A stretch of DNA of 64,000 bases from a virus. Its lineage: Duplodnaviria > Heunggongvirae > Uroviricota > Caudoviricetes. How positions within the stretch are numbered: the stretch's first letter is position 1; each line of letters starts with the position of its first letter. Location: the IMG/VR virus record IMGVR_UViG_3300042473_000506. One strand, 5' to 3'. The position numbers and the translations under genes were made by a program. The notes beneath the pieces are model-generated. The model was given only the letters and a program-made list of their open reading frames with translations. It did no database searches and was not told where the DNA came from. Below are positions 36,406-59,508 of this stretch, one piece after another.

Positions 36406-36699
36406 TCATCCCCACTTTAAAATAAAGAACACAGCGTCCTTTTCGTTTTTAAATCTATACTCAAAGGGTCCAGTACTCCAGCGAGGATTATTATATCCTT
36501 CGTTTCTGTGTCCGAAATACTTTGAGCACCATGCCATCATCTCATCCTTTTCTTCCCACCAATCACCGCCTGAATAATACACAGTGTATTTCTGGGGAGC
36601 AAGTTCTTCTCGAACCCGCAGTTCTAAACTACGGGGCCGTTTAGTAAACCAGTTCATAGGAGTATGCGGATAAAAACTATTAACGTCTAAATCAATCAT
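36406..36699 (-). CDS. hypothetical protein
   Basis: ORF. Confidence 0.3.
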   Translation of the reverse strand: MIDLDVNSFYPHTPMNWFTKRPRSLELRVREELAPQKYTVYYSGGDWWEEKDEMMAWCSKYFGHRNEGYNNPRWSTGPFEYRFKNEKDAVFFILKWG

Positions 36700-37232
36700 A
36701 CACCTACGAACCGGCTGGCTTCGGCGTGCAACCCTGCGTCACCCTTGGTCATCACAGCCAACAACAATCTCTTTTCCTCCAAGTAGGTCTTGGCGAAAGC
36801 AGGATCGTGAGCCATGATGCTACGGCTGTTGCTGATCAAATCTGCCAACTTGATGGTCTGTGCTTCGGCGGGCGCTCTTGCAGTATGCTCACGGTCTATT
36901 GCCTTGCGGTGGGCACGATTGCCATCATGCGGTTGGCTAACATCAGTCAACCATCCAACCAAGGTAGCAACATCGATACCAAAGGCCATGTGGATGTCAG
37001 TGTATGTGCAACCAGTGTCTTCCACAACATCATGCAACCAAGCAGCCGCAACCATATCAGGAGTGCTACCCGGAACGCCTGCTACGATCTTGGCAACTTC
37101 AGCCGGGTGGACAATGTAGGGTTCGTTAGTGTACTTACGCCTCTGTCCAACTGCGGCGTGAGCAGCCATGGCATAGACTTGCGCCTTACGGACTACATCA
37201 AATCCGCTGAGATCCATTGTAAAATCTTCCAT
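36696..37232 (-). CDS. HD-domain (p)ppGpp hydrolase (SpoT/Mesh1-like)
   Basis: 'NEPYIVHPAEVAKIV...MVAAAWLHDVVEDT' parallels SpoT 'GEPYITHPVAVACIL...LMAALLHDVIEDT'. Confidence 0.7.
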   Translation of the reverse strand: MEDFTMDLSGFDVVRKAQVYAMAAHAAVGQRRKYTNEPYIVHPAEVAKIVAGVPGSTPDMVAAAWLHDVVEDTGCTYTDIHMAFGIDVATLVGWLTDVSQPHDGNRAHRKAIDREHTARAPAEAQTIKLADLISNSRSIMAHDPAFAKTYLEEKRLLLAVMTKGDAGLHAEASRFVGV

Positions 37233-37258
37233 GCTGCTCTCCTTGTTAATAAGTATAT

Positions 37259-37287
37259 ATTATAGCATGGATTTACCATGCTGTCAA
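37259..37287 (-). promoter_or_regulatory. sigma70 consensus early promoter TTGACA-N17-TATAAT upstream of the HD hydrolase gene
   Basis: Minus strand 'gTTGACAgcatggtaaatccatgcTATAATatatac'; spacer is a perfect hairpin gcatgg/ccatgc. Confidence 0.6.
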
Positions 37288-37514
37288 CCGGAAGTTTTAA
37301 CCACTTCCAGGATGGTAATTTCTACTACTAAATGCTTACGCAGTAGCATGAACTTTTTGAACTTGGCTTCTATGTCCGCCTGAATGTACTCGTCATGGTA
37401 AGGCATAGTAGCAACGTCCTCATAGGGTTCATCGTTTTCGTTTAACGCTATGAAACTGAGCTTCACTGTGCCCTGTTCGGGCTCTTTGAACATTTTAACA
37501 AATTTGTTGAACAT
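37284..37514 (-). CDS. hypothetical protein
   Basis: ORF. Confidence 0.3.
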   Translation of the reverse strand: MFNKFVKMFKEPEQGTVKLSFIALNENDEPYEDVATMPYHDEYIQADIEAKFKKFMLLRKHLVVEITILEVVKTSG

Positions 37515-37522
37515 GCAAATAT

Positions 37523-38068
37523 TTAGTGATGCCCTTTAATTTCGTTATCTTTAATCATACGAACTGCCCGATCCATGGAGATTACAATTTCCCCAGTTGA
37601 GTCCATACCCACATCCATGCAACGATATTTTTCCATGCCTGTAGTGCCACCGTGCAAGTGACCGTGAAAGTGCAGAGAACCACGATGCATCTGATCCCAT
37701 TCATAGATAGGATAGTGAAACATCACGCACTTGTGGCCATCATAGGTGATATCCAAATACTTATGTACTTCAACAAATGCATCGCGGAATGTTACATCCA
37801 TTAGGGTCTTGCGGTCATGGTTGCCTTCTACAAGGATCTTATCTCCGTTCAACCGATTCATCATTCGTCCAGCATCACTTCCTGACATAAACGCTACATC
37901 GCCTAAGATGTAGACTAAATCACCCGGCTCTACTTTGTCGTTCCATTCTTCCGCCATTGCGTTATTCATATAAGCAACATCGTCACGAAATCGTGCCCGT
38001 GTTTGCGGACAGAACTTCATAATGTTCTTGTGCCCGAAATGGAGATCCGAAGTAATCCAAGTTTTCAT
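37523..38068 (-). CDS. calcineurin-like metallophosphoesterase (Ser/Thr phosphatase-like)
   Basis: 'SDLHFGH', 'ILGDVAF', 'GNHD', 'HGH' metallophosphatase motifs in order. Confidence 0.7.
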   Translation of the reverse strand: MKTWITSDLHFGHKNIMKFCPQTRARFRDDVAYMNNAMAEEWNDKVEPGDLVYILGDVAFMSGSDAGRMMNRLNGDKILVEGNHDRKTLMDVTFRDAFVEVHKYLDITYDGHKCVMFHYPIYEWDQMHRGSLHFHGHLHGGTTGMEKYRCMDVGMDSTGEIVISMDRAVRMIKDNEIKGHH

Positions 38069-38103
38069 ATTATTTCCTATTATACAGCCAGTGACCTATA
38101 CCG

Positions 38104-38568
38104 TCAACTGGCATACCAAATTTCTTTAAACCCTTCTTCCTCAGTGGGCTCTTCCCAACTGGCAATCATGCTGGCAATAACATGATCCGGAATCTCTTTG
38201 CCAGGGCGGCTCATCAATCGGCGCATAAGTTCTTTGTGTTCAGGTGTCTTAAACACTATTGCAATATGCTCATAGTCAGGTAACATGTTAAACTTGCGAG
38301 TACGACTTGCAAGAGTAGTACTAGTTTGATCCCAGATAATATCTCGATTCATTTCACGAGCCGCAACAACTTCCTTGGCCATAAGGTCTACAGCAGTGGG
38401 CATAAAGTCTACAAACACTTCGCTGTAGGTGCGTCCTACTTCCTTTGCGTAGATTTCAACCCACTTGTCTGTGCTAATACAAGAGCAGGTCAACGCCCAG
38501 TCTTGTTCAGCCACCCAAGTACTTTTACCTGAACCAGGCACTCCAATCAATTGATAACATTTTGCCAT
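38104..38568 (-). CDS. P-loop NTPase / small nucleotide or polynucleotide kinase
   Basis: Walker A 'GVPGSGKST' at residues 9-17; 154 aa. Confidence 0.5.
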   Translation of the reverse strand: MAKCYQLIGVPGSGKSTWVAEQDWALTCSCISTDKWVEIYAKEVGRTYSEVFVDFMPTAVDLMAKEVVAAREMNRDIIWDQTSTTLASRTRKFNMLPDYEHIAIVFKTPEHKELMRRLMSRPGKEIPDHVIASMIASWEEPTEEEGFKEIWYAS

Positions 38569-39036
38569 TTAATCTACACTCCTAAAAGTTCGCCAATCGT
38601 CTATGTTTGGCTTTTCATCTTCATCATATGTCCAACCCAAAGCCTTCATCATGCGATGCTTGACCAATAGGTTGGGGCTACGGAATCTACCTGTGTCTTC
38701 AAAGCCCATCATAACACCAACTTCGCAAACTGCACCACTGCGGCAAATACCCGCATAGCAGTGAACAACTACATTCATACGGTTGTCCTTTGCGTGTTGC
38801 AACAGTCGAACAAGCTCGTTAGCCTGCTCTTGACTACATTTCATTGCTTCTTCCAACACTTCGTCCTTGGCCTCTACGTCCAAAAACTCAAAGTTGTGTT
38901 GCTCTTTAAACTTGTGAGCAGGCACAGGGCGCCAGCTGGCCGGATCAACAATGCTGATCAGCATACTGTTCTCACCTGCCTCATGATGAAACCTTGTGGG
39001 TATATCAGCGGCCGCTACGTTTTCAATCCATGGCAT
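38569..39036 (-). CDS. dual-specificity / tyrosine-phosphatase-like protein
   Basis: 'VVVHCYAGICRSGA' = HCx5R(S/T) phosphatase P-loop. Confidence 0.65.
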   Translation of the reverse strand: MPWIENVAAADIPTRFHHEAGENSMLISIVDPASWRPVPAHKFKEQHNFEFLDVEAKDEVLEEAMKCSQEQANELVRLLQHAKDNRMNVVVHCYAGICRSGAVCEVGVMMGFEDTGRFRSPNLLVKHRMMKALGWTYDEDEKPNIDDWRTFRSVD

Positions 39037-39103: not shown

Positions 39104-39317
39104 TATGTCCACCCAAAAAACTCGCCTAGAAAAAAAAGCTGACGATATATTTGAGTTGCTGGATCATTATGTTTATCCCACAACGGGCGAAACACTGGCA
39201 GCTCAAAAGGGTTTGATGGTAGGCTGGTTAGCTAGACTGGCAACTACTGACTGGACAGTTGCAGAAGAATTAGAAAGACGATTACATCTTGCTCGGAAAC
39301 AAAAAGGTAAAATTTGA
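39104..39317 (+). CDS. possible small protein (70 aa; C-terminal part of ORF 38994..39317)
   Basis: Start at Met 'MSTQKTRLEKK...'; the upstream part of the listed ORF overlaps the minus-strand promoter. Confidence 0.25.
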
Positions 39318-39353
39318 ATTTTATACCCTCTAATTTTAGAAATAAATATAATT

Positions 39354-39905
39354 ATGAGATGTTTCTATAAATTAAAAATTAATAATCTAGAATCTATACA
39401 GGCACACGCATTATCTAAAATATCTGAAGAAGATCTTAATTTGATGCCAACTAGATTATTTTATCCAGAATATAATTTTTTAGATGATCAAGATCTCTTA
39501 TGTGCGTTAAATCAATACGGGTTGACAAATTATATACATAATGTTGCTCTTTTTGTTCTCAATTCAGGAGGCATAAGCCCTATTCATGTCGACGGGGATA
39601 ATGACTATAATTGGAGTTTAAATATACCTTTAAAAAATTGCAGATATACTCGAACTAATTTTTATCAATCTAATGAGGTTCCTGTTAAGAAAAAAAGTCC
39701 AAACAGTGATATAGAATACAGTATCTTTGATCCAAACTCTTGCACACTACTAGATTCTCTTCGATTATCTGATCCATTTTTAATGAATGTGTCAGTTCCT
39801 CACAGCATATCTAATCTTACTTTTACAACAAGAGTTTCTATATGTATAAGAATAAAATCTACATTTGACATAGAAGCCGCTCTGTCAGAATGGGATTTAA
39901 AATAA
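39354..39905 (+). CDS. small 2OG/Fe(II)-oxygenase-like (DSBH) protein, island paralogue 1
   Basis: 'SPIHVDGDNDYNWSLNIPLKNC' (HxD, NxPL) ... 'VSVPHSISN' ... 'RVSICIR' (distal His + Arg). Confidence 0.5.
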   Translation: MRCFYKLKINNLESIQAHALSKISEEDLNLMPTRLFYPEYNFLDDQDLLCALNQYGLTNYIHNVALFVLNSGGISPIHVDGDNDYNWSLNIPLKNCRYTRTNFYQSNEVPVKKKSPNSDIEYSIFDPNSCTLLDSLRLSDPFLMNVSVPHSISNLTFTTRVSICIRIKSTFDIEAALSEWDLK

Positions 39906-39912
39906 CGAATTT

Positions 39913-40452
39913 CTACATAATAAATTTTTCAAATCTACTTAATGCATCCTGCCATTTGAAATATTTCGAATTGTGTAATGATACTTTTATACTAACACAC
40001 CATCGAGGTGACGTTATATTTGATACGTTATGAGGAACACCGCTTTGAAATAAACACGCCCCTTGTAAGTTTACGGATTCGATTAACTGCATTTTATCAA
40101 TTTCGTAGTCTCTTTTCCAAGCTACACCATTGTGTTTCGGTAGTCCTGGATACTTATTAATTGATCTGTACCAGTTAACTAGACTATCATTTGCATTTAT
40201 ATAAAAATTTAAATTTGTTTGATCGTAAACGTTATAGTTGTCTATATGAATCGGGGAAGACGTGCTTTCCCCACTATAATAAATTATTAGGCCGTTTAGT
40301 CGAAAATCATCAATTTTCTTTAACAGTTCTAGCATATCTGGACTTAATATTTCTGTTATATGAGCAGTACCTAATTTCCATTGTTTTTCGCATACAAAAG
40401 ATTCGCTAAGAAACGGTACAGGAAATGACAGTTTTTTAAAATAATCGCTCAT
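39913..40452 (-). CDS. 2OG/Fe(II)-oxygenase-like protein, paralogue 2
   Basis: 'SPIHIDNYN...' ... 'SGVPHNVSN' ... 'RWCVSIK'. Confidence 0.5.
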   Translation of the reverse strand: MSDYFKKLSFPVPFLSESFVCEKQWKLGTAHITEILSPDMLELLKKIDDFRLNGLIIYYSGESTSSPIHIDNYNVYDQTNLNFYINANDSLVNWYRSINKYPGLPKHNGVAWKRDYEIDKMQLIESVNLQGACLFQSGVPHNVSNITSPRWCVSIKVSLHNSKYFKWQDALSRFEKFIM

Positions 40453-40515
40453 TCAAATATTTACCACCTAATTATTAATCGAGCTTTCTAGGAGTAATAA
40501 GAGCAGATAAATATT

Positions 40516-41082
40516 TTGATGAAATATTATAAAAAAATAGAAATTGAAAACTTAGAGGTAATACAGAAAAAAGTTTTACAATTTATTAAATTTAAACACC
40601 CCACTATATATTTTAGAAAAGTTGAGTCATCTTGGAACCATCTCGATGTTCCGAGTTTGTTGGCGGCATGCCCAGAACTTTCTGAGTCTTTCGGCAAATT
40701 GAATTTATCCTGCATTTTTGCGTCAATTCATATAATGTATGATAATACACATTCTGCTATACATACTGATATTACGCCCTGGAAAGCTAGAATTAACATT
40801 CCTATTTTAAATTGCAACGGAACATTTACTAAATTTTATACAGGTGAAAAGGTAGTAGAAGAAATTAGGACCATGGCAAATAATAAAACGTTTAAGGTAG
40901 ATGCAATTATAAATCCACTTGAATGTATTGAAGTAGACGCATACGAATTAACACAGCCGTTAATTCTTAAAACTTATATACCACATAGGGTTTTTATGAA
41001 TGAAACTTCGAGACCTAGAATAGCATTGTCAATTGGCTGCGATCCTGATCCATTCTATCAATATTTTTCGTCAGACGAATAA
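40516..41082 (+). CDS. 2OG/Fe(II)-oxygenase-like protein, paralogue 3
   Basis: 'SAIHTDITPWKARINIPILNC' ... 'TYIPHRVFMN' ... 'RIALSIG'. Confidence 0.5.
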   Translation: MMKYYKKIEIENLEVIQKKVLQFIKFKHPTIYFRKVESSWNHLDVPSLLAACPELSESFGKLNLSCIFASIHIMYDNTHSAIHTDITPWKARINIPILNCNGTFTKFYTGEKVVEEIRTMANNKTFKVDAIINPLECIEVDAYELTQPLILKTYIPHRVFMNETSRPRIALSIGCDPDPFYQYFSSDE

Positions 41083-41649
41083 ATCTGTAGTATCCACTAC
41101 ATCTTCAATATTTCTAAATTTAATAGGATGTAGTCCCCATCGCACGGTAAACATTATCCTTATATCATCATTAAAATTTTTAACACCATGCATGACATCA
41201 CCTTTAACAAAACAAGGCTTTGTTATCTCAAGGTCTTCGATAATTTCTAATTTAGAATTGTCTATAGGAGTTAGACCATGCAGGTAACTGCTTTGTACGG
41301 CACCCATGACTAGATTTTCTTTTGGACAATGATACCATAACATTTTTGTATTATGACAATTTAATACAGGAATATTTAATCCAAACGGTACTGTAATGAA
41401 TGAACTATCAACATGAGGAGCTAGCTCAGCATGCCCCGGTGTAAAATAAAACCTAAGTAATCGAATTTGACTTTTACTCCTCGACTTTAGCCACCTCATT
41501 AATTTTGGACAATGTTCAGTCATATGCTCTTCACTGAACGTACATGCATGTAGGCCTTTAGATGCATAATCATAATTAATAGATTTAATTAATTCGTGTT
41601 GAATCTCTTCAAAGTTGGGGATATGGATGTATCTATAAAGTTCTTGCAT
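41071..41649 (-). CDS. 2OG/Fe(II)-oxygenase-like protein, paralogue 4
   Basis: 'LAPHVDSSFITVPFGLNIPVLNC' ... 'GDVMHGVKN' ... 'RIMFTVR'; 3' ends of paralogues 3 and 4 overlap convergently by 12 nt. Confidence 0.5.
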   Translation of the reverse strand: MQELYRYIHIPNFEEIQHELIKSINYDYASKGLHACTFSEEHMTEHCPKLMRWLKSRSKSQIRLLRFYFTPGHAELAPHVDSSFITVPFGLNIPVLNCHNTKMLWYHCPKENLVMGAVQSSYLHGLTPIDNSKLEIIEDLEITKPCFVKGDVMHGVKNFNDDIRIMFTVRWGLHPIKFRNIEDVVDTTDLFV

Positions 41650-41694
41650 ACTTCCAAATATTTAGTAATAAATACTTTACAAACTTTAAAAATT

Positions 41695-42315
41695 ATGCTA
41701 CCTTCTATAACATTAAACCCTGATGATTATTATTATGCACTTAATCAGCCCTGTACAATCTTACCTCAACTATTAGAATATGTTCAAAGTGTAGAAGACT
41801 GGGAGGGATTAGATTGGCATACATTTTATTTAGATGTACCAAATAGGACTGCTTGTAATTTCGAATCAGATCCTGTAATTAAATTTTTTCTAGATCAGGG
41901 ATGGAGGTTAAACTTCACATGTATGCCCCCTAAGGGGCATTATCGATGGCATATCGATAATCAAGGAAATAGACAAACCGCAATAAATTTAGCACTAAAT
42001 GGTTTTGAAACAACTAAAGTTATGTGGCGACCAAATAGACCGTACGTGCGAAAAATGAATACAGAAATTATGGATATTCCCTACACACCTGGTACGTATT
42101 TTGTATTTAATACACAAGAGGAACATTGTGTAACTAATTTCAGTAATGAAAATAGATATCTATTAAGCATTACACCAGATAAAAGATTTGCTGTTCCTGA
42201 GTATTTTGACGGAATTTATAAAAATGTAAGTCCTAGTCGATACGCTGAAATTCTAAAAGGTTACAAGCTAGCATTTAAAGAGGTCGTTAGCGAAGTTAAA
42301 GCACAAGGTTGGTAG
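41695..42315 (+). CDS. 2OG/Fe(II)-oxygenase-like protein, paralogue 5 (start moved to internal Met)
   Basis: 'YRWHIDNQGNRQTAINLALNG' ... 'QEEHCVTN' ... 'RYLLSIT'; the listed ORF start (41596) overlaps paralogue 4 on the other strand. Confidence 0.45.
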   Translation: MLPSITLNPDDYYYALNQPCTILPQLLEYVQSVEDWEGLDWHTFYLDVPNRTACNFESDPVIKFFLDQGWRLNFTCMPPKGHYRWHIDNQGNRQTAINLALNGFETTKVMWRPNRPYVRKMNTEIMDIPYTPGTYFVFNTQEEHCVTNFSNENRYLLSITPDKRFAVPEYFDGIYKNVSPSRYAEILKGYKLAFKEVVSEVKAQGW

Positions 42316-42327
42316 TAGATTTTAAAT

Positions 42328-42936
42328 TCAGTCTTTCCATCTAATAGTATTCCAATCAAACATAAAATTTAAGTTAAGTTGTTCGTACGCTATCCATTGT
42401 TTAGTGTACTGAATATTAAGAGGAAAATCAATTACATTAAAATTATTATAAAATAGATGATGTAATTGTCTAGGTGATCGAGTTTCACCTAATCTTTTTC
42501 TTTTAAATGTTTCTATCAAATTTTTATTATAGTCATTAAATGTGATAGCAATAGCTTTACAATTATTGTCTATTGCCCATTGTTTGTGCATTGGTAAAAA
42601 AAGTTCTCTAGGTAATCCTAAATGTCGGTAATCTTTTGTAACCCATGTTCTACATCCGCCTATGGCAACTTCATTGGAGAATTCACTTCTATAAACTCCC
42701 GAACAGGCTACAATAGTTTCATTTTTTATCGCTAAGTGAAACGCTCCACTGGTTTCAAAATATCGATGCCTGTTGTATATTTGATGTATTAGTGTGTTAG
42801 ATTTAGTATGCCAATCTTCTACCCACATATTGCTGTGTGCTAGCTGAGTAATTTCTTCTGATGCCTCTTGACAAAATTTAAAAAATAAACTTTTATCCTC
42901 TAACTCGTCATACCGAATAAGTGTTAGATCAGACAT
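42328..42936 (-). CDS. hypothetical protein (possible acyltransferase fold)
   Basis: ORF between paralogues; no secure motif. Confidence 0.3.
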   Translation of the reverse strand: MSDLTLIRYDELEDKSLFFKFCQEASEEITQLAHSNMWVEDWHTKSNTLIHQIYNRHRYFETSGAFHLAIKNETIVACSGVYRSEFSNEVAIGGCRTWVTKDYRHLGLPRELFLPMHKQWAIDNNCKAIAITFNDYNKNLIETFKRKRLGETRSPRQLHHLFYNNFNVIDFPLNIQYTKQWIAYEQLNLNFMFDWNTIRWKD

Positions 42937-43477
42937 TGCTAACTAAATCTTCAAAATTTGGATTACCGTGAAATCTCATAGTAAATACCCACCGATCTTC
43001 GAGTTGATTTGATTGTGCTGAATGCGGACAATCTACTCTTAATAGATGAGGGCTGTCAATTTCTAATTTAAAATCTTCTGTATATGGTTCTTGCCACATA
43101 ATTTCATGATAAACGTTGTTGGATAACATTACAAGAGATGTGCTGTATTTTCCTTTATACCAAATTTGGTAACTGTTTTTACAACCTTTCAACGGAATGT
43201 TTATTGCAGATTTTATAATACCTTCTTCATTACCGTCTATATGAATACCTTGAAAACTATTCTTTGGTCTAATATAACTTAGACAATAGCGAACAGGAGG
43301 TATATTATACCTAGCTAGGTCTGCATCAATTATATGCTTTAATTGATTGTTGAGCTCGTGTCTTATTTGTATTTGTCTATCTACAGGAATTGAAGTATCT
43401 ATCTTTTTCTCTATATCTAAAATTGCAAATTCTTTTATAAGATGTTCGCATGTTAAATGAATTTTTTTACAGTACAC
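42929..43477 (-). CDS. 2OG/Fe(II)-oxygenase-like protein, paralogue 6
   Basis: 'QGIHIDGNEEGIIKSAINIPLKGC' ... 'VDCPHSAQSN' ... 'RWVFTMR'. Confidence 0.5.
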   Translation of the reverse strand: MYCKKIHLTCEHLIKEFAILDIEKKIDTSIPVDRQIQIRHELNNQLKHIIDADLARYNIPPVRYCLSYIRPKNSFQGIHIDGNEEGIIKSAINIPLKGCKNSYQIWYKGKYSTSLVMLSNNVYHEIMWQEPYTEDFKLEIDSPHLLRVDCPHSAQSNQLEDRWVFTMRFHGNPNFEDLVSNV

Positions 43478-43542
43478 GATGTTTATCGTAAAATTTTGGA
43501 ATATCTTTTATTTAACTCTCTGCAATTTTGTAATATAAATAT

Positions 43543-44169
43543 ATGAAACATATTATGATAGTAGCCACACCACTTAACCTTCCTACTGTAGTCCCTGACG
43601 ATTGGTCTGTATTTTGGAATATTTGGAACAATTATGGAAAACCTATAGTTAAAACGCAACAAAACCATAAGGGATCTTATTCAAAAATTGGAGATACAGA
43701 TGTCTGGAAAGGTTTAGATATCTATAAAAATAATTTATTTCGATCTGCATGGACTGCACCTTACTATGATATTCGAGAAGAACTTCCCTTAATGTATCAA
43801 ATGATTACAAAAATTCCTCTATTCTCTCTTGTCACTGGTGTTAGGGTTGTAGAAAGCCTAGGAAATATTCCGCCACACACTGATGATAATATAGATCGAT
43901 GGAACGTTAGAGCAATGTTGCATTATACTGATTCGAACCCTCAATGGTTTTTTACTAAACCGAATGATACAAAAACTGCTGTGTTGTTAACATTGCCAGA
44001 GTCCACTAATTGGTTTGCATATAACGATAAGTACACATGGCATGGGTCGAAGTATAACCCGGATCACCCTAAATTATTAATTCAAATGTTTGGAGTAGGA
44101 TTTAAGAACAGTCAGTTCCTACAAAAAAGTGCAGAAATGTACAAAGAATATACAATATCATATGACTAA
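43543..44169 (+). CDS. 2OG/Fe(II)-oxygenase-like protein, paralogue 7 (divergent)
   Basis: 'IPPHTDDNIDRWNVRAMLHY' ... 'KYTWHGSKYN'. Confidence 0.4.
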   Translation: MKHIMIVATPLNLPTVVPDDWSVFWNIWNNYGKPIVKTQQNHKGSYSKIGDTDVWKGLDIYKNNLFRSAWTAPYYDIREELPLMYQMITKIPLFSLVTGVRVVESLGNIPPHTDDNIDRWNVRAMLHYTDSNPQWFFTKPNDTKTAVLLTLPESTNWFAYNDKYTWHGSKYNPDHPKLLIQMFGVGFKNSQFLQKSAEMYKEYTISYD

Positions 44170-44950
44170 TTTATTTCAAGCTAGTTCAACTACTGTTAGG
44201 TATTCTCATATTGTAGCAAGGTTAGCAATTATTATAGGTGCATTCTTTGTAACATTTAATTTACCCTTATTACTTGTGTCTGCTATTGCATATCATGTTT
44301 TACTATCTATCGGTATAAGCATAATGATGCATAGATACTTCAGCCATAAAAGTTTTGAATTTAAAAATAATATTGTCAGAAAAGTTTTTATTATAATTTC
44401 ATTGCTTTCGTTGCGAGGAAGTCCAATAGCTTGGGCATACATCCATCGAGCACATCACGAACACGTAGATACCGAAGATGATCCGCATACTCCTGTTGGT
44501 AGAAAATTTAACTTTTTTGGATTACTTGACAACAAAAATAAAGCTGATGATATTCAGATATTTAAAATTAGATCTATGATGACCAAGGAGCACCTATTTA
44601 TTAATCAATACTATTGGTTGATCTTAGCATGTTTGTTAGTACCTTTTGCATTTATTAATTTTACATTATTTTATTATACATGGCTAGTTCCTGTAGTTCT
44701 TGTACAATTTTCTATTAATTTACAAAACTATTTAGGACATATGTCAGGTATAGGTGCGTATAGGACTTACACTAATCCATCTAGCGGCAATAGTCAAAAT
44801 AGTTTGTTATTGTGGCCTTTATATTTAGGTGAAGCGTGGCATAACAACCACCATGCACATGCTCGACATTATCACTACGGAACTGAAATAAGTGGAAAGT
44901 GGTGGGAGATCGATCCCGGTGCAATGCTCATTAAGTTACTGAAAAAATGA
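44162..44950 (+). CDS. integral-membrane di-iron fatty-acid desaturase / hydroxylase-like enzyme
   Basis: Three histidine boxes 'HRYFSH', 'HRAHHEH', 'WHNNHHAH' separated by hydrophobic spans. Confidence 0.6.
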   Translation: MTNLFQASSTTVRYSHIVARLAIIIGAFFVTFNLPLLLVSAIAYHVLLSIGISIMMHRYFSHKSFEFKNNIVRKVFIIISLLSLRGSPIAWAYIHRAHHEHVDTEDDPHTPVGRKFNFFGLLDNKNKADDIQIFKIRSMMTKEHLFINQYYWLILACLLVPFAFINFTLFYYTWLVPVVLVQFSINLQNYLGHMSGIGAYRTYTNPSSGNSQNSLLLWPLYLGEAWHNNHHAHARHYHYGTEISGKWWEIDPGAMLIKLLKK

Positions 44951-45507
44951 TACGATTTTTAACAATGGATGACTTGCCGGATTGCATGAAAATTGCACCA
45001 TTAAAAAATAGAACCGGTGGCACTGTTCCATTAACACTCGAAGGATTTTTAGGTGCCTTTGAAAAATATTTCCAGGATGATGAATTTTGCCGTGTGATTG
45101 GATACTTTGAAAATAATGAACTTGTTAGTTTTGTATGTATCAGAATGTTCGAAACTACGATGAGAGGAAAATTTTGGGTTATTTCGGGATTATATACTAA
45201 GAATTTTAAAAGTTATTTTAGCTTTAACCATTCAGGAATAGGCGAATTAATTAAATTTGCATTCGATTATGCTGAATCACGAGGTTGGTATGAATATTAT
45301 TATTGCACTGCCGAACGTGTAATAAATGTATATGAAAGACAATGGAAACGATCACACTCTCATAGATACGAACATATATTGTTAGACGTTGTTCCACCTA
45401 ATACAAAACCATTTTATGAATTGCACTGGAGACTAATGGGGCAAGAAGTTAAACCTGTCCCAATGATTGTTAAAAAGCGAGCGTTAAAACAAGAATTTAG
45501 AAAATAA
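44947..45507 (+). CDS. hypothetical protein (GNAT-like acyltransferase fold possible)
   Basis: 186-aa ORF; beta-alpha pattern only. Confidence 0.3.
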   Translation: MIRFLTMDDLPDCMKIAPLKNRTGGTVPLTLEGFLGAFEKYFQDDEFCRVIGYFENNELVSFVCIRMFETTMRGKFWVISGLYTKNFKSYFSFNHSGIGELIKFAFDYAESRGWYEYYYCTAERVINVYERQWKRSHSHRYEHILLDVVPPNTKPFYELHWRLMGQEVKPVPMIVKKRALKQEFRK

Positions 45508-45553
45508 AAATCAGTTATTTTATCCTATAAATATAATGCTCATAGGAAACTAA

Positions 45554-46330
45554 ATGAACACAGCATTTTTATCTAGCAGCACTAGGGGTGCTCAACTATT
45601 CTTGATATTAAATTTAATAGGTACTTTCGGTGCTGTCTGGTTGTACGGATTAAATTTTAATTCTTTTATGATGGTACTAGTGGGATACTTTTTATATGGT
45701 TGTTTAGGTATCGTCGTAACTTATCACAGAAATCTTTCTCACAATAGTTATAGAACACATCCGATCATTGTAAAGATATTTTCATTATTAGGATGCTTTG
45801 CAGGGACCGGCAGTCCACTTGCATGGGTGGCCATTCATATCAATCATCACTTAAAGAGTGACAAGCCTACTGATCCGCATAGTCCGTTATACAAAGGGGT
45901 AAAGATCTTTATGATGGATTATATAAATGAAGTTGATAAAGATACAAAATGGAGAATGAGGGCATTAGTCACTGACAGATTCCAGCAATTCCTACATAGA
46001 TATTATTTTGCAATCATTGCAACCTATAGCCTTGTACTATTTTTAATAGGAGGATTTTGGTTGATGGTATTTTTTCATTGGGCGCCTGCTGCAATGACCG
46101 CCCTTATGAGTAATGTTGTTAATTATGTGGGACACAAACCAAGTTGGTGGGGTGGATATAGAACACACAATCTAAATGATCAAAGTACAAATAATTGGCT
46201 ATGGGCTATTCCTAGTTGGGGGGAAGCGTGGCACAACAATCATCATAGATATCCTAGGAATTTTAGTTTTGGAAACAAGTGGTGGGAGATTGATATTTCG
46301 GCACTTGTAATTAGATTGATTAAAATTTAA
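45554..46330 (+). CDS. integral-membrane di-iron desaturase / hydroxylase-like enzyme, second paralogue
   Basis: Histidine boxes 'HRNLSH', 'HINHHLKSD', 'WHNNHHRYP'; same C-terminal 'KWWEID' as 44162..44950. Confidence 0.6.
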   Translation: MNTAFLSSSTRGAQLFLILNLIGTFGAVWLYGLNFNSFMMVLVGYFLYGCLGIVVTYHRNLSHNSYRTHPIIVKIFSLLGCFAGTGSPLAWVAIHINHHLKSDKPTDPHSPLYKGVKIFMMDYINEVDKDTKWRMRALVTDRFQQFLHRYYFAIIATYSLVLFLIGGFWLMVFFHWAPAAMTALMSNVVNYVGHKPSWWGGYRTHNLNDQSTNNWLWAIPSWGEAWHNNHHRYPRNFSFGNKWWEIDISALVIRLIKI

Positions 46331-47202
46331 TGAAATTTAATAGCAAACATCCAATTGTGGCTATGCCCATGAATGGAGTATCCAATGTTGACTTAGCTAT
46401 TGCTGTAACTCAAGCGGGTGCTGTACCTAGTTTGTCAATCTTTAATTATTATGAAGGTGGAAAAGTAAATCTAAAGCATGTAGATGCCAGTTTAAAAAGG
46501 TTTACAGATGCAACCAGTTCTACAGAAATAATTTTAAGTATGCACTGGGAACATTTTATATGGACTCCTGTTATAGATGTTCTATTAGAAAATAATATAA
46601 AATTAGTTGAACTTTTTATTAGACCATCAGATCATCATTTGTGGCCTGAATTATCTAAACAGATCGACAATATGAAGGTACACGGTATAGCTGTAATGTT
46701 TAAAACTTCTAATCGGCTACCTATGTCCTATTTTGATTCGATAGTATTGAAAGGTCCTCAGGCTGCTGGGAGATCATTCGGTAGTCTAGTATCATTAGAA
46801 GATCGATATGATGCTATGAAAGAACAAGTAGGATCAAGAATCATTCCAAGCGGTGGTATTGGCAGTCCTGAACAGGTAAAATATTTTATGGACAGAGAAG
46901 CATTAGCTGTGGGTATTGGCACACTACTTGCAGCATCTGAAGAAAGTTGTGTGTCAAGCGATACTAAACAAAAAATTATAGAGTCCACATCAAAAGATAT
47001 CAAATTAATAGGTCCGTTAAATTGCAGAGGGCTGTTATTTTCTAGACTAGAAAATGACGACGATAACAATTCCAAATCTCTATATGAGGGTATCAAGGGA
47101 ACTAATTCCGGATGCATCTATGTAGGCAACGGAATAGACTATATAAACAAAATAATGCCAGTAAAAGATATAATAGAGTGGTTAGTTAAAGATGTTAATT
47201 AA
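46330..47202 (+). CDS. FMN-dependent nitronate monooxygenase / FabK-like TIM-barrel oxidoreductase
   Basis: 'PIVAMPMNGVSNVDLAIAVTQAGAVPSLSIF' and 'IIPSGGIGSPEQVKYFMDREALAVGIGTLL' parallel the NMO/FabK FMN-binding blocks. Confidence 0.55.
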   Translation: MKFNSKHPIVAMPMNGVSNVDLAIAVTQAGAVPSLSIFNYYEGGKVNLKHVDASLKRFTDATSSTEIILSMHWEHFIWTPVIDVLLENNIKLVELFIRPSDHHLWPELSKQIDNMKVHGIAVMFKTSNRLPMSYFDSIVLKGPQAAGRSFGSLVSLEDRYDAMKEQVGSRIIPSGGIGSPEQVKYFMDREALAVGIGTLLAASEESCVSSDTKQKIIESTSKDIKLIGPLNCRGLLFSRLENDDDNNSKSLYEGIKGTNSGCIYVGNGIDYINKIMPVKDIIEWLVKDVN

Positions 47203-48358
47203 TAAGTTACTGGGCTATTATACATGTGACGGTTTAGAATTTGAATCAAAAATTCAAGCATGTTTTCATTCTCTTAAAGTCAACAAGCCAGTTGACTGGG
47301 TCTTTAATGATTTAGAATTTAGCATACACGACTGGACTAAAGAACCAGAAGAAACATTAGACCAATTATATGATAAACGAGTGAGAGATCTGCGAGCAAA
47401 ATACGATTATCTTATTTTAAGTTACAGCGGCGGCGCTGATAGCCATCAAATTTTAATGAGTTTTATTAGACAAGGTATACACTTAGATGAGCTGCTAATC
47501 AACACAATGGAAAAAGGTTGGAAACCTTATACTAGTTTAGATCCTAGAAATGTTTCTAGTTTGAATTCAGGGGCCGAGCATTACCTACAAACTATTCCAA
47601 GACTAAAAGAAGTAGAGCAGTTTATTCCAAAAACAAAGATTACAATCTGTGATCTAACTGATCAAGTTAACGATTCATTATTGTCAGTAGGTGATGCAAG
47701 CTGGGTATTGCAAAAAAGAGAAGCATTGAATCCTATAGGAATTACTCGATTTAACTATGTATACTTTGATGAAGTTCGTAGACTGTTTGATAAAGAGAAG
47801 AAGATAGGTATTATACTTGGAGTAGAAAAACCTAAAAGCATTATCCATGAAGGTCAATTTTGGATGAGATTCAATGATCGATCAGCTAACATGGTTACAA
47901 TTGTCGATCACATAAAAGATTACGACAACAGTGTTATTGAATATTTTTACTGGAGCCCTGAGTGTGTGCCATTATTAATCAAACAAGGACATGTGATAAA
48001 AAGATGGCTAGAATTAAATCCTAATTATCAGCAATACTGGAACACTAAAACTTCTAGTTATGCTTCTGTAAGATTTTGGCATGAGAGATTATTAAGAAAA
48101 GTTATGTATCCGACAACTTGGAATAATTCTTGGTTTCAAGTGCATAAAGCAACAAAAGATTGGTATAGCGAATTTGACAATTGGTTCATCGAAGGAAGCG
48201 TTAAAACAAAAGCCAATGTCATATGGCATGAGGGCATTGATTATGTTAGGAATTCTTTAACTCCATTTTTGAGATACGATTTAGAAACAAATCAACCAGA
48301 CGGATTACAATCCTTTGTTAAACAATATTTAATTGGTAGAGTTGAAACACGGTCTTAA
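47192..48358 (+). CDS. PP-loop ATP pyrophosphatase (adenine-nucleotide alpha-hydrolase superfamily)
   Basis: 'LILSYSGGADSHQILMSF' SGGxDS motif. Confidence 0.55.
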   Translation: MLINKLLGYYTCDGLEFESKIQACFHSLKVNKPVDWVFNDLEFSIHDWTKEPEETLDQLYDKRVRDLRAKYDYLILSYSGGADSHQILMSFIRQGIHLDELLINTMEKGWKPYTSLDPRNVSSLNSGAEHYLQTIPRLKEVEQFIPKTKITICDLTDQVNDSLLSVGDASWVLQKREALNPIGITRFNYVYFDEVRRLFDKEKKIGIILGVEKPKSIIHEGQFWMRFNDRSANMVTIVDHIKDYDNSVIEYFYWSPECVPLLIKQGHVIKRWLELNPNYQQYWNTKTSSYASVRFWHERLLRKVMYPTTWNNSWFQVHKATKDWYSEFDNWFIEGSVKTKANVIWHEGIDYVRNSLTPFLRYDLETNQPDGLQSFVKQYLIGRVETRS

Positions 48359-49263
48359 TCTTTTGTTTTGATCTTATTTTCTAAAATAAATTTTCTAATA
48401 TTGTCATTATAATTCAACGATTCTTTAATCTTAGATTTATCAGTATCTGATTTGAAAAATAATCCTATATCAGTAAGCCCTTGCTTATATTCTGCTGATT
48501 GAAATATTGTTTTTAGATCAGCTGTAATTTTACCTTTAGTATATTCATCCATAGTCTTAGGAACAATTACTGAAAGATAGCTTTGGAATGGGAACACTTC
48601 TTTATAAAAACTTTCCCATGTTGATGTTTTTAATCCAACAGCATGACTAGTTAATAATAATTTTAAATTTTCGTGATTGGTGTAGGCTTTAACTGTCGGG
48701 TAGTTGCCAAACATACAATCAACATGCCCGCCAACTAAATCTAATACAGACTTATTTCCCCCTTGAGCATAGGGAACGACGATATGATTGTTTTTAGTTT
48801 TTGATAGTAATACTTCAGTGGCGATATGTTCGGAAGACCCATAACCTCCAACAGCAAAGGACAATGATTTTTTAGTATTGATAAAGTCTTGATAGGATGT
48901 TATTCCTGTTTTAGCATTACAGAGTAATGCAGAGGGCATAATTCCTATAGTGGCCAGCACTTCTAAATCAATTTTGTGATCGTAATTTAAGTCGTTAAAA
49001 TTGATAGGGTTGGTAACAAAAACTTGAACTACAGTAGCCAGTAGCATAGTTTTTTCATTCATTAAATGACCCATAGCAATTTTGCCAGATGCTCCTGGCC
49101 GATTGACTACTACATATTTTTTATCTAAGTTTTTAGCGATATACCGTGTTGTGATATCGCTCACACCACCGGGAGCGTGCATAACTGTAAACTCTAATGA
49201 TTGAGCTACTGCAACTTTTGAAAAAAATAAAATTAATAAAAGAAAAAATTTGTTGATTAGCAT
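48355..49263 (-). CDS. secreted TctC/Bug-family-like solute-binding protein
   Basis: Signal peptide 'MLINKFFLLLILFFSKVAVAQS'; 'HAPGGVSDITTRYIA...VVNRPGASGKIAMGHL' resembles the TctC 'PAGGGTD...V.N.PGAGG' signature. Confidence 0.45.
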   Translation of the reverse strand: MLINKFFLLLILFFSKVAVAQSLEFTVMHAPGGVSDITTRYIAKNLDKKYVVVNRPGASGKIAMGHLMNEKTMLLATVVQVFVTNPINFNDLNYDHKIDLEVLATIGIMPSALLCNAKTGITSYQDFINTKKSLSFAVGGYGSSEHIATEVLLSKTKNNHIVVPYAQGGNKSVLDLVGGHVDCMFGNYPTVKAYTNHENLKLLLTSHAVGLKTSTWESFYKEVFPFQSYLSVIVPKTMDEYTKGKITADLKTIFQSAEYKQGLTDIGLFFKSDTDKSKIKESLNYNDNIRKFILENKIKTKD

Positions 49264-49281
49264 GATATATAAATATTCTTT

Positions 49282-49848
49282 ATGTACTTCTCATACTTAT
49301 CTCTTCCAAGATTACCTAAAGAATTTTTTGCTCAATGTTTGGAAAATGTAAAATACATTGGTGTAGATCCTAGACTAGAAAATGTTAATAGTTATCGAGG
49401 GCCAATGAATCGAGCTACGTATCTGCCCGAAGAATGTAATACATGGATTATTAGAAATATTGTATTTCCGTTATATGGAAGTATTCCTTCAACTCTAAAA
49501 TTAAATTTATTAAATGTAACTACATACCAAAAGTTAAAACCTCAAGAAGAGACATGGGGTACACACCCTAAACATATCGACAAAGGCAGAAACTGGGCAT
49601 TAAATTATTATTTTACCACTGGTGGAAGTAATACTACCGTTAGGTGGTACGAAGATAATGTTGTGGCAGCAGAAACACCACCTATAGAAATTAATAGATG
49701 GTGTTTATTAAAAGTTAATCAACTACACGATGTTAGAGGAATTGAAGAAGGTCAAATTCGATATTTTTTAACATTGAATATTTCTTCTGAAAATATAGAT
49801 AATTTTAAATCAGTAATTGATCAAAATACAGTGATTGAAAAAAAATGA
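49282..49848 (+). CDS. 2OG/Fe(II)-oxygenase-like protein, paralogue 8 (divergent)
   Basis: 'HPKHIDKGRNWALNYYF' ... 'NQLHDVRG' ... 'RYFLTLN'. Confidence 0.4.
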   Translation: MYFSYLSLPRLPKEFFAQCLENVKYIGVDPRLENVNSYRGPMNRATYLPEECNTWIIRNIVFPLYGSIPSTLKLNLLNVTTYQKLKPQEETWGTHPKHIDKGRNWALNYYFTTGGSNTTVRWYEDNVVAAETPPIEINRWCLLKVNQLHDVRGIEEGQIRYFLTLNISSENIDNFKSVIDQNTVIEKK

Positions 49849-51377: not shown

Positions 51378-51426
51378 TTATCTAGGTAGAGTTAAATTAA
51401 CATTTTTACAAAATTAGAACTAACAA

Positions 51427-52347
51427 ATGGAAAGACATAATCAATGGATGAGCTACAGTTTTGATGCTATAGAATATGGCAAAAAAACTGATTCAAATTC
51501 TATTTTTAAAATTCATTTTAATAAAAAAATAGATAAAAATCTCCCTTCTTATAGAGATGCATTATTTAATAATGCCCGTATTATGCGAGACTCGTATAAT
51601 GAACCATTTGATGTAATGTTGTCAGGCGGAGTTGATAGCGAAATGGTTGTGCGAACATTTCATGCTGTGGGAATTAAACACAATACATTTATTTTTAGAT
51701 TAGAAAATGATTATAACATTCGAGATGTTAATTATGCCATAGCTGTTTGTAAAGAACTAAACATTAATTATAAAATAATAGATTTTAATTTACAAAAATT
51801 CTTCGAAAATGATGCACTTGATTTATTTCAAAAGACACTAATTCCAAGATCAGGAAGAATAGTGAGACTTGCGTGGTTTAACTATCTTGATAATATTCCA
51901 GTTTTTTGTGACGGTGAACCCTACTGGCGCAGGGATGCAAATAAAGATTTTAGTAAAAAATCTACGTGGAGATTAATTTTAAACGAAGACGGATACTCGT
52001 GTTCTACCTATGCTAAATCAATTGGTAGAGTAGCGATTGGGGATTGGTATGAATATACCCCCGAATTGTTATTGTCATACAACGAATTGCCGTTAGTTAA
52101 AAAATTACTCAACGACGAAATCTCAGGGAAGATTAGTTCCTGGAGTAGCAGGTCTGCTATTCACAGAGATATCTGGCCTACTGTACAGGATAAAATAAAA
52201 TTAGCAGGATACGAAGGTGCAGACGGCAATCCTGTATTGAGTCGTCCGGATTTTATGAATCACTTTCAGGTAACGTATATGAATCAAGTGTCCAATACTC
52301 ATTACGAATATACTGAAGAAGAACTAAGAAATTTAATCCTTAATTAG
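51427..52347 (+). CDS. asparagine-synthetase-like PP-loop amidotransferase domain protein
   Basis: 'FDVMLSGGVDSEMVVRTF' followed by 'FCDGEPYW' (compare AsnB 'SGEGSDEVFGGY'); paralogue of 55967..56896. Confidence 0.5.
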   Translation: MERHNQWMSYSFDAIEYGKKTDSNSIFKIHFNKKIDKNLPSYRDALFNNARIMRDSYNEPFDVMLSGGVDSEMVVRTFHAVGIKHNTFIFRLENDYNIRDVNYAIAVCKELNINYKIIDFNLQKFFENDALDLFQKTLIPRSGRIVRLAWFNYLDNIPVFCDGEPYWRRDANKDFSKKSTWRLILNEDGYSCSTYAKSIGRVAIGDWYEYTPELLLSYNELPLVKKLLNDEISGKISSWSSRSAIHRDIWPTVQDKIKLAGYEGADGNPVLSRPDFMNHFQVTYMNQVSNTHYEYTEEELRNLILN

Positions 52348-53172
52348 ATTTTCTCGGACCCAACGTCCCCAATGTATACAATGATACTCGTATTTTGATA
52401 GTGATTCGGTAACAGGAAAGAATTTTGTTTTTATCTTTTCGATCGCAGCAACATCTTCCCTAAACACAGTTTCTAATGTTTCAAATTCGATACGATCATT
52501 ATGTGGAACATCAGGGGCATAATAGAATTGTGTAATCCATTCGAATTTCCATTCTATATTTTTATCTGCAGGAACAATAGTGTTTACTGACAGGCATCCT
52601 TTCTTATGCTCGACAAAGGTGTAGGGGTATATATAGAGTGACCACCAACCTGGAGAATGTTCTTGGAATATCCATCCATCTCCTTGATCCATAACAACAT
52701 TATCTAAATCAATTTGTTCAGAGAGTCTCGGATGAATTCCATCCTTTTGTACATGTAAATAATCTGCTTCAGCATCCATGAGCCATAACCAGCTTCCCTC
52801 GCTTTTACCTTGAAGAGAATGACTATATTCTAGCGTTGTTTCTTTTTCCAGATCATCGACCCATTGATGGTCTGGTTCGATAAAATCTTTAAATACTAAC
52901 CCTGATCGACCAACAGTTGCAGTCCCACAATTTAATTTTTTAGAATTATTAATTGGTGTGCCATTTGCATCCCATTGAAATCCGTGGAACTTACATGTAA
53001 TGCTGTTGATATGTGTTCCTGGATCAGCTAGTGGATACATTCTGTGGGGACAAAATCTGTGAAATAAATTTACTATATTACCTTGTTTATTTAGAATATA
53101 TTCAGAAACTGCAAAGTTCTTGTCCTGCAATGCACTGAGATGAGCAAAAATTTTAGGAGATTTAATAAACAT
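52333..53172 (-). CDS. Rieske [2Fe-2S] non-heme-iron oxygenase
   Basis: 'CPHRMYPLADPGTHINSITCKFHGFQW' = CxH-x16-CxxH Rieske motif. Confidence 0.6.
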   Translation of the reverse strand: MFIKSPKIFAHLSALQDKNFAVSEYILNKQGNIVNLFHRFCPHRMYPLADPGTHINSITCKFHGFQWDANGTPINNSKKLNCGTATVGRSGLVFKDFIEPDHQWVDDLEKETTLEYSHSLQGKSEGSWLWLMDAEADYLHVQKDGIHPRLSEQIDLDNVVMDQGDGWIFQEHSPGWWSLYIYPYTFVEHKKGCLSVNTIVPADKNIEWKFEWITQFYYAPDVPHNDRIEFETLETVFREDVAAIEKIKTKFFPVTESLSKYEYHCIHWGRWVRENLIKD

Positions 53173-53204
53173 TGTAAGAGTAATGTGCGTATATAAATAG
53201 TTGT

Positions 53205-53792
53205 ATGTATGCTATTTACTTAAACGACATAGAAAGATTTATTGCGATTGAAAAAGATCTTTGGATTGCACATGCATCGGCAAAATTGCTATCTTCAAAA
53301 TTATCTATCTCTATATGTGATATCGGAAATGCATTGTCTGTAACTAACTATAACTGTTTTCAATGGACATTGTCAAGTGTAGACTTGCCCGCCTCTACAC
53401 AATATCCAAAATTAGTTGTACCAAAAGATTCTAAATTAGAATTTGTCGGTGATCCTATTAATACAGATATGGAAATGTTAAAATTGCATCAGCAATTTTG
53501 TTTGTTAGTATTAAAGGTTGTTTTTGCGGCAAAAATGACCGACATTGAATTAAATTCAGGAGATCGAAAATATTTTCAATCTTTACTTAAAAACGACACT
53601 TTACTATCTGCGTCGGACGAGTCCGGAATTCCTGGAGGGTTTTTACATACAATAGAAAGAATTCTTTATTTGAGTTCAAATGTAACGCACGTTATGTCTC
53701 ATATTGAATTAATGTTTAATAATTCAGAGAGTATATTTCCTAGAAATCTTGCACAATATAAATTACTATTTTACAAATACTTAAATGCATAA
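53205..53792 (+). CDS. hypothetical protein
   Basis: ORF. Confidence 0.3.
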   Translation: MYAIYLNDIERFIAIEKDLWIAHASAKLLSSKLSISICDIGNALSVTNYNCFQWTLSSVDLPASTQYPKLVVPKDSKLEFVGDPINTDMEMLKLHQQFCLLVLKVVFAAKMTDIELNSGDRKYFQSLLKNDTLLSASDESGIPGGFLHTIERILYLSSNVTHVMSHIELMFNNSESIFPRNLAQYKLLFYKYLNA

Positions 53793-56896: not shown

Positions 56897-56902
56897 AGAA
56901 AA

Positions 56903-58674: not shown

Positions 58675-58749
<75 letters not shown>

Positions 58750-58890: not shown

Positions 58891-58954
58891 GTCTACTCCT
58901 TTAGTTAACAGGTTCTCATTTTATGTGCTACCACTACACCAACACCGCTGACCA

Positions 58955-59501: not shown

Positions 59502-59508
59502 ATTTAAA

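Follow-up and report, generated by a model that had tools for sequence, protein, structure and literature searches.

A stretch of 64,000 nucleotides from a virus of the Caudoviricetes (IMG/VR record IMGVR_UViG_3300042473_000506), referred to below as the window, contains eight small open reading frames (ORFs; p1 to p8 in Table 1) whose products all carry an HxD motif followed by a second histidine, and it raises the question of what a phage does with so many diverged copies, set among genes for other enzymes. An earlier note on this DNA, made from the sequence alone, had described them as eight tandem paralogues in alternating orientation with the active-site signature of Fe(II)/2-oxoglutarate (2OG) oxygenases. 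Our analysis leads to a reading that we consider probable, if by no means certain: the array would encode long-diverged, small, soluble, single-domain Fe(II)/2OG-dependent hydroxylases of the aspartyl beta-hydroxylase (AspH)/Cpz10 type, and it would be the copy-variable part of an accessory module conserved in a lineage of T4-like jumbo phages, with a lean towards acyl or lipid substrates. The fold, the motifs, the family membership, the purifying selection and the conserved neighbourhood on which this reading builds were observed in this analysis; from them we infer catalysis and a substrate class.

All eight ORFs are present, and they encode soluble proteins of 179–208 aa (maximal 19-residue Kyte-Doolittle hydropathy ≤1.25); for p3 the ATG at 40519 is the likely start. 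The seven oxygenase-like genes between 39354 and 44169 follow one another in the strand order + − + − + − +, as had been described, and the reported 12-nt overlap of the convergent genes p3 and p4 is confirmed: the gaps within convergent pairs are 7, −12 and 12 nt, and those within divergent pairs 63, 45 and 65 nt. The term tandem is appropriate insofar as homologous genes are adjacent, but a gene for a GNAT-family acetyltransferase, unmentioned in the earlier note, interrupts the array (it runs in the same direction as p6 and overlaps it by 8 nt), and the eighth gene lies 5 kb away.

Of the ordered motif set attributed to these proteins, the HxD pair and the distal His are found in all eight, while the full N-x-P occurs only in p1, p3, p4 and p6, and p7 has neither the Asn nor the Arg. 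The spacings also differ somewhat from those first given. The Asn, present in seven of the eight proteins and replaced by Arg in p7, comes 10–13 residues after the first His of HxD rather than about 15. The distal His is 51–75 residues from HxD, against a claimed distance of 40–60; the separation is 72–75 residues in p1, p2, p3, p4 and p6 and 51–58 in p5, p7 and p8, a difference that maps to one variable insert. The Arg follows the distal His at +9 to +11 (8–10 had been claimed) in seven proteins, with a Lys at +10 in p7. An alignment of 138 diverse relatives shows no variation at H78, D80 and H150 (p1 numbering) and conservation of at least 90% at N90, P92 and R160; the HxD/His/Arg positions are therefore kept family-wide. 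Among the orthologues of p7 itself H112 and H167 are invariant, and D114 and K177 nearly so.

The assignment of these proteins to the double-stranded beta-helix (DSBH) fold and to the Fe(II)/2OG-oxygenase type is supported by the structural model of p1, by the conserved HxD/His/Arg, and by sub-threshold Pfam signals. The AF2 model of p1 (pLDDT 90.7, pTM 0.87) opens with a helical N-terminal region; its eight main strands come next and form a double-stranded beta-helix (jelly-roll) core. In this model H78 ends a short strand (strand II) with D80 directly after it, N90–P92 lies inside the strand 85–94, H150 is the first residue of the strand 150–154 (strand VII), and R160 is the first residue of the strand 160–168 (strand VIII), a predicted layout that is canonical for 2OG oxygenases. 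The variable insert sits between the fourth and fifth core strands, where 2OG oxygenases usually have their substrate-recognition element. The model of p7 is likewise confident (pLDDT 93.8) and beta-rich.

The best Foldseek match of the p1 model is Cpz10 (E 6e-6). By fold score, the matches are a 2OG-Fe(II) oxygenase family protein of Burkholderia (6n1f, 12.4), the beta-hydroxylase Cpz10 (7v4p, 12.3), a viral collagen prolyl hydroxylase (5c5t, 11.8), Ofd2 (5yl6, 11.8), L-proline cis-4-hydroxylase (4p7x, 11.6) and AspH (5apa, 11.2). Since plain cupins score close behind the oxygenases, the fold alone is not decisive, and the oxygenase assignment is made because of the conserved triad and basic residue. 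In a weak profile alignment the HxD and the PH...R of the family also line up with the motifs of 4p7w, an L-proline cis-4-hydroxylase. Among predicted viral structures, the nearest are those of uncharacterised proteins of uncultured Caudovirales (TM 0.7–0.76).

The claim of eight paralogues holds for most of the set. In an all-against-all BLASTP of the eight proteins, p1, p2, p3, p4 and p6 are mutually significant (E 1e-4 to 1e-11, 21–28% identity), and p5, p7 and p8 have no significant match. When the sets of the latter three were compared by hhalign to a 129-sequence profile of the family from which they had been left out, p5 was recovered with a probability of 97% (E 4.9e-11, 164 columns) and the p8 orthologues with 93% (E 2.7e-7, 88 columns covering every motif), leaving p7 as the weakly linked member. 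Each paralogue is nearer to proteins of other phages (35–74% identity) than to its neighbours in the array, which argues that the divergence is old and that recent tandem duplication is not its source. Orthologues in related contigs are 66–84% identical, with ratios of nonsynonymous to synonymous rates (dN/dS) of 0.13–0.24; examples, with related loci denoted by L numbers, are p2 in L010 (84%, dN/dS 0.22), p6 in L011 (66%, 0.16) and p8 in L010 (76%, 0.13), and the range for p3 is 0.13–0.22. By these ratios the array ORFs are real, functional genes under purifying selection. The orthologous group of p7 is the most widespread, with 36 orthologue clusters; p4 has 12, and its relative P0024 has a faint match to PF05118.

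The family as a whole is large. An exhaustive profile search yielded 2,387 representatives (clusters at 50% identity) at E≤0.001, 596 of them at E≤1e-10, and all the members sampled are hypothetical proteins of metagenome origin. In some metagenome members the domain occurs in two or three copies per chain (P0090, 556 aa with three matched stretches; P0115, 345 aa; P0132, 383 aa), through either the fusion of tandem genes or the merging of gene calls. Searches against Pfam, proposed in the earlier note as a check, gave only sub-threshold signals of 2OG-FeII_Oxy_3 and Asp_Arg_Hydrox: p5 matches PF13640 with E 3.4e-4 (21.9 bits, below the gathering threshold of 27) and PF05118 with E 0.02 (15.1 bits, below the threshold of 22.6), and the other seven window proteins match neither. 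Among the 138 relatives, 18 match PF05118 at E≤0.01 (best E 9e-7) and one matches PF13640.

Other collections added little. Among 50,697 GenBank phage records nothing was found by megablast of the 39–50 kb region or by tblastn of p1, p4 and p7. Searches of the PDB with family profiles returned only spurious or non-significant matches (protein A repeats, antibody light chains, pyocin), and p7 has neither a Pfam match nor a PDB sequence match. When 185,579 species genomes were scanned for patterns taken from the orthologue alignments of p7 and p4, no relative was detected; these scans reach only fairly close relatives, and absence of the family from cells is unproven.

Compared with known systems, neither the size of these proteins nor their number is exceptional. 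The scaffold had been called unusually small, but solved 2OG oxygenases of 168–190 residues exist (Cpz10, vCPH, Ofd2, ALKBH7), and cyanophage genes of this class measure 537–768 bp (PMC3037559). T4-like cyanomyoviruses carry 1–5 diverged 2OG-Fe(II) oxygenase genes of that length per genome, their function untested (PMC3037559), and cyanophage S-SCSM1 carries 24, whose function is also untested; cyanophage genes of this kind fall in pfam13640, pfam13661, pfam13759 and pfam05721 (PMC9602691). These precedents mean that both the multi-copy phenomenon and the scaffold size were already known. The window family resembles the cyanomyovirus oxygenases in its small genes and in having several diverged copies per genome of a T4-like marine phage, in BFVD matches to cyanophage 2OG oxygenases and to proteins mis-named endonuclease V (E 1e-5 to 1e-6), and in the match of p5 to phrog_274, also labelled endonuclease V (E 0.005), which is the sole match in PHROGs. 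It differs in being unrecognised by Pfam and in that its copies are clustered in one module with desaturase, PP-loop and radical SAM genes.

Cpz10, the beta-hydroxylase of caprazamycin biosynthesis (PDB 7V4M/7V4P), is aspartyl/asparaginyl beta-hydroxylase-like and, with its 168-residue chain, is likewise a small single-domain jelly-roll. Its iron ligands are H115, D117 and H160, and Arg170 is ten residues past the distal His (PMC9814697), the same spacing as between H150 and R160 of p1. Cpz10 differs in belonging to an actinomycete antibiotic cluster, in having a known small-molecule substrate and in its second iron site, whereas the phage proteins have the N-I-P motif in strand III and another N-terminal region, and are only 10% identical to it. 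PF05118 is the sole Pfam family matched repeatedly by the relatives, and its HxD/His/Arg(+10) layout is the same; however, no window protein reaches its gathering score, and the window proteins have no TPR or membrane segments. Human AspH, for its part, lacks the Asp ligand. What is new at this locus is thus not the array as such, which is the sort of gene content to be expected of a phage, but a large AspH-like clade that Pfam does not recognise and that is so far seen only in viral and metagenome sequence, together with the multi-enzyme module to which this clade is constantly tied. In marine T4-like phages, 2OG oxygenases in several copies rank with the most frequent accessory genes that still lack an explanation, and the locus adds to them a family of about 2,400 clusters with a clear catalytic signature that is invisible to Pfam.

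Under the favoured reading, the HxD pair and the distal His would bind Fe(II), the Arg about ten residues beyond (Lys in p7), at the start of strand VIII, would bind the C5 carboxylate of 2OG, and the conserved Asn of strand III would probably contact the C1 carboxylate. Oxidative decarboxylation of 2OG would then generate a ferryl species that hydroxylates a C–H bond. Differences among the paralogues are greatest in the helical part at the N-terminus and in the insert between strands IV and V, which points to different substrates or positions; eight distinct ones, as the earlier note had supposed, are plausible.

The module in which these genes reside is set out in Table 1 together with the array.

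Table 1. Genes of the oxygenase-like array, of the surrounding module and of its left border (coordinates in the window; residues numbered by protein).
Feature	Position	Strand	Remarks
p1, 183-aa DSBH oxygenase-like protein	39354..39905	+	H78, D80, N90-I-P92, H150, R160
p2, 179-aa paralogue	39913..40452	−	H69, D71, N82, H141, R150; no Pro after Asn
p3, 187/188-aa paralogue	40516..41082	+	H83, D85, N94-I-P96, H157, R168
p4, 192-aa paralogue	41071..41649	−	H79, D81, N92-I-P94, H154, R164; 3' end overlaps p3
p5, 206-aa distant member	41695..42315	+	H86, D88, N98, H144, R154; short strand IV–V insert
GNAT acetyltransferase-family gene, inside array	42328..42936	−	Pfam Acetyltransf_1, 22.2 bits (cut-off 20.7)
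p6, 182-aa paralogue	42929..43477	−	H79, D81, N93-I-P95, H152, R162; GTG start
p7, 208 aa, most divergent member	43543..44169	+	H112-T-D114, Arg replacing Asn, H167, K177
Des1, FA_desaturase-family membrane protein	44129..44950	+	Pfam FA_desaturase E 1e-12; JGI start 44162
X186, 186-aa protein between the desaturase genes	44947..45507	+	no Pfam or NCBIfam match; kept in module
Des2, FA_desaturase-family membrane protein	45554..46330	+	Pfam FA_desaturase E 3.6e-16
NMO-family FMN oxidoreductase	46330..47202	+	best NCBIfam match FabK enoyl-ACP reductase, far below cut-off
388-aa protein, SGGADS PP-loop motif	47192..48358	+	highly conserved, unannotated
TctC/Bug-type solute-binding protein	48355..49263	−	Pfam TctC E 2.4e-23; hydrophobic signal-peptide-like N-terminus
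p8, 188-aa distant member	49282..49848	+	H98, D100, N108, H149, R160; directly upstream of radical SAM gene
B12-binding-type radical SAM protein, 510 aa	49845..51377	+	Pfam Radical_SAM
Rest of module (the six genes that follow)	51427..56896	mixed	recur in L002, L003, L008, L014–17, L022
PP-loop protein, 306 aa	within 51427..56896	+	
Rieske protein, 279 aa	within 51427..56896	−	sub-threshold best match methylsterol monooxygenase
195-aa protein	within 51427..56896	+	
PP-loop/DndC-like protein, 430 aa	within 51427..56896	+	
Second TctC-like protein, 298 aa	within 51427..56896	−	
PP-loop protein, 309 aa	within 51427..56896	−	
HD_4 (SpoT-hydrolase-like) protein	within 36696..39036	−	left of island
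181-aa protein, metallophosphatase-like motifs	within 36696..39036	−	left of island
AAA_33 kinase-like protein	within 36696..39036	−	left of island
Dual-specificity phosphatase	within 36696..39036	−	left of island

The module recurs, with its gene order shuffled, in at least 12 independent contigs, IMG/VR viral contigs among them, and loci with the same gene set are L002, L003, L005, L008, L010, L012–L018 and L020–L022. An FA_desaturase gene adjoins members of the oxygenase family in nearly all related loci; the window has two such genes and some loci have up to three. A paper on cyanophage lipid desaturases makes no mention of oxygenase neighbours. Homologues of X186 occur in L010, L014–16, L018, L021 and L022, the GNAT gene is kept beside the array in L002, L010, L011, L012, L013, L018 and L022, and an AAA_33 kinase-like gene and a dual-specificity phosphatase (DSPc) gene are the usual flanks. 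The 388-aa PP-loop protein, far more conserved than the oxygenase-like genes, is a good marker of the module: it has 794 homologue clusters, of which the 120 listed are 54–100% identical, many of them on contigs of up to 200–320 kb and none of them named. No functional name for it was obtained from the PDB or from a search of 5.8 billion proteins, nor from the PDB for the Rieske protein. The number of oxygenase-family copies per locus, by contrast with this fixed company, ranges from 1 to 9. Those detected number six in L010 (p1 +, p2 −, p3 +, two distant members and p8), three in L011 (p1 +, p3 +, p6 −), five in L022, and nine in L021, eight of which are on one strand. Since orientation varies across loci, strand alternation characterises this genome and L010 but not the family as a whole.

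It is this constant partnership with desaturases, together with the lipid-type best matches of other neighbours, that inclines us towards molecules of acyl or lipid type, on which the neighbouring desaturases would act, as the substrate. The matches in question, all sub-threshold, are to FabK/PfaD for the FMN oxidoreductase, to methylsterol monooxygenase for the Rieske protein, and to lipid-type B12-radical SAM proteins including HpnJ for the radical SAM protein (whose best NCBIfam matches, lipid-biosynthesis B12/radical SAM, PhpK and HpnJ, are all far below cut-off). PF05118 also includes the lipid hydroxylases LpxO and OlsC. This is the least certain step of the proposal, and we put it forward tentatively, as a guess that may well prove wrong. 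More speculative still, and in our estimate rather unlikely, is the broader picture of a conserved jumbo-phage module of about 18 kb, with two to four desaturase-family enzymes and two secreted TctC-type binding proteins among its products, that would build or remodel a lipid or lipid-linked molecule in many oxidative steps late in infection, the hydroxylase array being its variable tailoring arm; if true, this would be a phage-encoded multi-enzyme pathway without a described counterpart, found only in viral sequences. In either case the fixed partnership of desaturase, PP-loop, Rieske and radical SAM genes provides a defined set of genes for co-expression, with which the question of substrate becomes approachable.

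Expression in alternating orientation has a candidate explanation of its own. Alternation had been thought to resist polar read-through, an idea that finds no support here: terminator-like hairpins are absent between the convergent pairs of the array, the single terminator-like site found being inside the GNAT gene, and relatives do not keep the alternation, the order in L011 being + + − − and eight copies in L021 sharing one strand. Sigma-70-like sites are not enriched (62 vs 59.9 expected). On the other hand the window contains 17 copies of ATAAATA, the core of the T4 late promoter TATAAATA, and 10 of these sites have a start codon on their own strand no more than 35 nt downstream, vs 0.43 expected; these ten lie 1–25 nt upstream of the starts, seven of the ten in the low-GC island described below, and ATAAATA is the commonest of its 21 letter permutations in this upstream position. 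The sites include 39341–39347, 40506–40512, 43535–43541, 45527–45533, 49269–49275 and ~53193–53199. The motif precedes p1, p3, p7 and p8 by 5, 5, 1 and 6 nt, respectively, and near-variants precede p2, p4 and p5. Given the T4 geometry, this implies that several mRNAs would begin at or next to the ATG, as leaderless late transcripts. Each gene of the array may form a late transcription unit of its own, and separate ATAAATA-type promoters of this kind would explain how genes in alternating orientation can be expressed.

Several observations weigh against the hydroxylase reading or parts of it. No paralogue reaches any Pfam gathering threshold, and NCBIfam gave no match for the five paralogues scanned. 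The family of p7 aligns to the 129-sequence profile with a probability of 28% (E 6e-4), over the N-terminal half up to HxD, and p7 has Arg in place of the Asn and Lys in place of the Arg. The lipid guess draws on which genes lie nearby and on matches of these neighbours that stay below threshold, and islands of T4-like phages also gather unrelated accessory genes. The promoter assignments, finally, come from motif enrichment, not from transcripts.

Among other explanations, the first to be considered is that the array encodes prolyl- or lysyl-hydroxylase-like enzymes that modify the phage's own collagen-like tail fibres late in infection. The window does encode two collagen-like, tail-fibre-like proteins on the minus strand, one at 3040–6006 with 33 consecutive G-X-Y triplets and one at 6090–7637 with 8 G-X-Y runs and 71 triplets in total, the triplets of both being mostly GPQ, GPS and GPT; these are possible substrates of phage-encoded hydroxylases. 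An ATAAATA late-type motif precedes the fibre gene at 6090–7637 as it does several array genes, p5 has its match to PF13640, and 6ax6, the lysyl hydroxylase L230 of mimivirus, is the best (non-significant) PDB profile match. In encoding collagen-like repeat proteins the phage resembles PBCV-1, with its collagen prolyl 4-hydroxylase vCPH (5C5T), and mimivirus (L230, 6AX6). The identity to these enzymes is, however, only about 12%, the P4H Pfam model is matched by p5 only, below cut-off, and the array has no genomic linkage to the fibre genes; its conserved neighbours encode desaturases, PP-loop proteins and radical SAM proteins instead of structural proteins. Among Pfam families the relatives come nearest to PF05118, not to the P4H family. 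Moreover, classical collagen hydroxylation takes place at the Y position of G-X-Y, while the Pro of the fibre repeats is at X, and one repeat type hardly justifies eight enzymes. We consider this explanation unlikely, though worth keeping in mind, since collagen-like tail fibres are, beside lipids, one of the two leading guesses for the substrate.

Somewhat less probable in our judgement is the tailoring of a small molecule, or of a nucleotide- or peptide-linked intermediate, in a phage pathway akin to secondary metabolism, of which the PP-loop, GNAT, Rieske and radical SAM enzymes would also be part, by analogy with Cpz10. With four PP-loop proteins, a B12-radical SAM protein, GNATs and a Rieske protein the module does resemble a biosynthetic cluster. 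The resemblance is offset by the very low identity to Cpz10 noted above, by neighbour assignments that are all far below family cut-offs, and by the fact that no NRPS, PKS or recognisable precursor peptide was seen in the 39–58 kb region.

Consumption or sensing of 2OG, and AlkB-like repair of nucleic acids, are roles suggested earlier for the 2OG oxygenases that cyanomyoviruses carry in several copies (PMC3037559). A second Arg found in p1, p4 and p6 six residues past the R160 position, on the same strand, could be cited in favour of such roles. However, the AlkB-type Pfam model (2OG-FeII_Oxy_2) matches none of the eight proteins or the 138 relatives, and the His-to-Arg spacing of 10 (9–11 across the eight) is shorter than in AlkB. 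A bulk sink for 2OG is disfavoured by the eight long-diverged copies under purifying selection, which speak for distinct specificities, and we regard both roles as improbable.

Least credible of all are non-catalytic cupin-fold proteins with a binding or regulatory role, rejected because the invariant H, D and H with a basic residue at least 90% conserved in the 138 relatives form a catalytic-site pattern, and halogenases, which the earlier note had allowed for and which are rejected because the Asp is invariant in all eight proteins and in the 138 relatives, whereas Fe/2OG halogenases have Ala or Gly in place of the carboxylate ligand (HxA/G).

As to the setting of the array, the window is contained in a metagenomic contig, JGI 3300042514, about 375 kb long, and it looks like part of a T4-like jumbo phage because of the genes for rIIA and rIIB (32.7–35.9 kb), tail-fibre genes, and 18 tRNA genes, all on the minus strand at 58676–64000 and including three tRNA-Arg, three tRNA-Leu and two tRNA-Met. 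The phage has no close relative in culture; its rIIA shares 28% identity with the rIIA of PA5oct-like phages. The genes left of 39 kb nearly all lie on the minus strand, and between this block and the tRNA block lies an island (39300–57000) with a GC content of about 0.32, vs 0.42–0.46 in the flanks, and with mixed gene orientation.

A few minor features were also noted around the module. Just left of the island, at 36696–39036 on the minus strand, is a run of signalling-type genes (last rows of Table 1). The left border of the island itself has a perfect sigma-70 consensus at 39088–39060 on the minus strand (TTGACA, a 17-nt spacer and a TG-extended TATAAT, 12/12 matches), which is directed into the genes for the phosphatase and the kinase-like protein at 38.1–39.0 kb. 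Small genes near the module match the RNA_pol_Rpb6/omega and eIF-1a Pfam models in L002 (6234–6464), L008 (6873–7085) and L005 (7649–7870). Directly 5' of p1 and on the same strand, a small ORF of about 69 aa (~39108–39317) is kept in three related contigs, with counterparts at 2017–2226 in L010 and 1142–1351 in L011.

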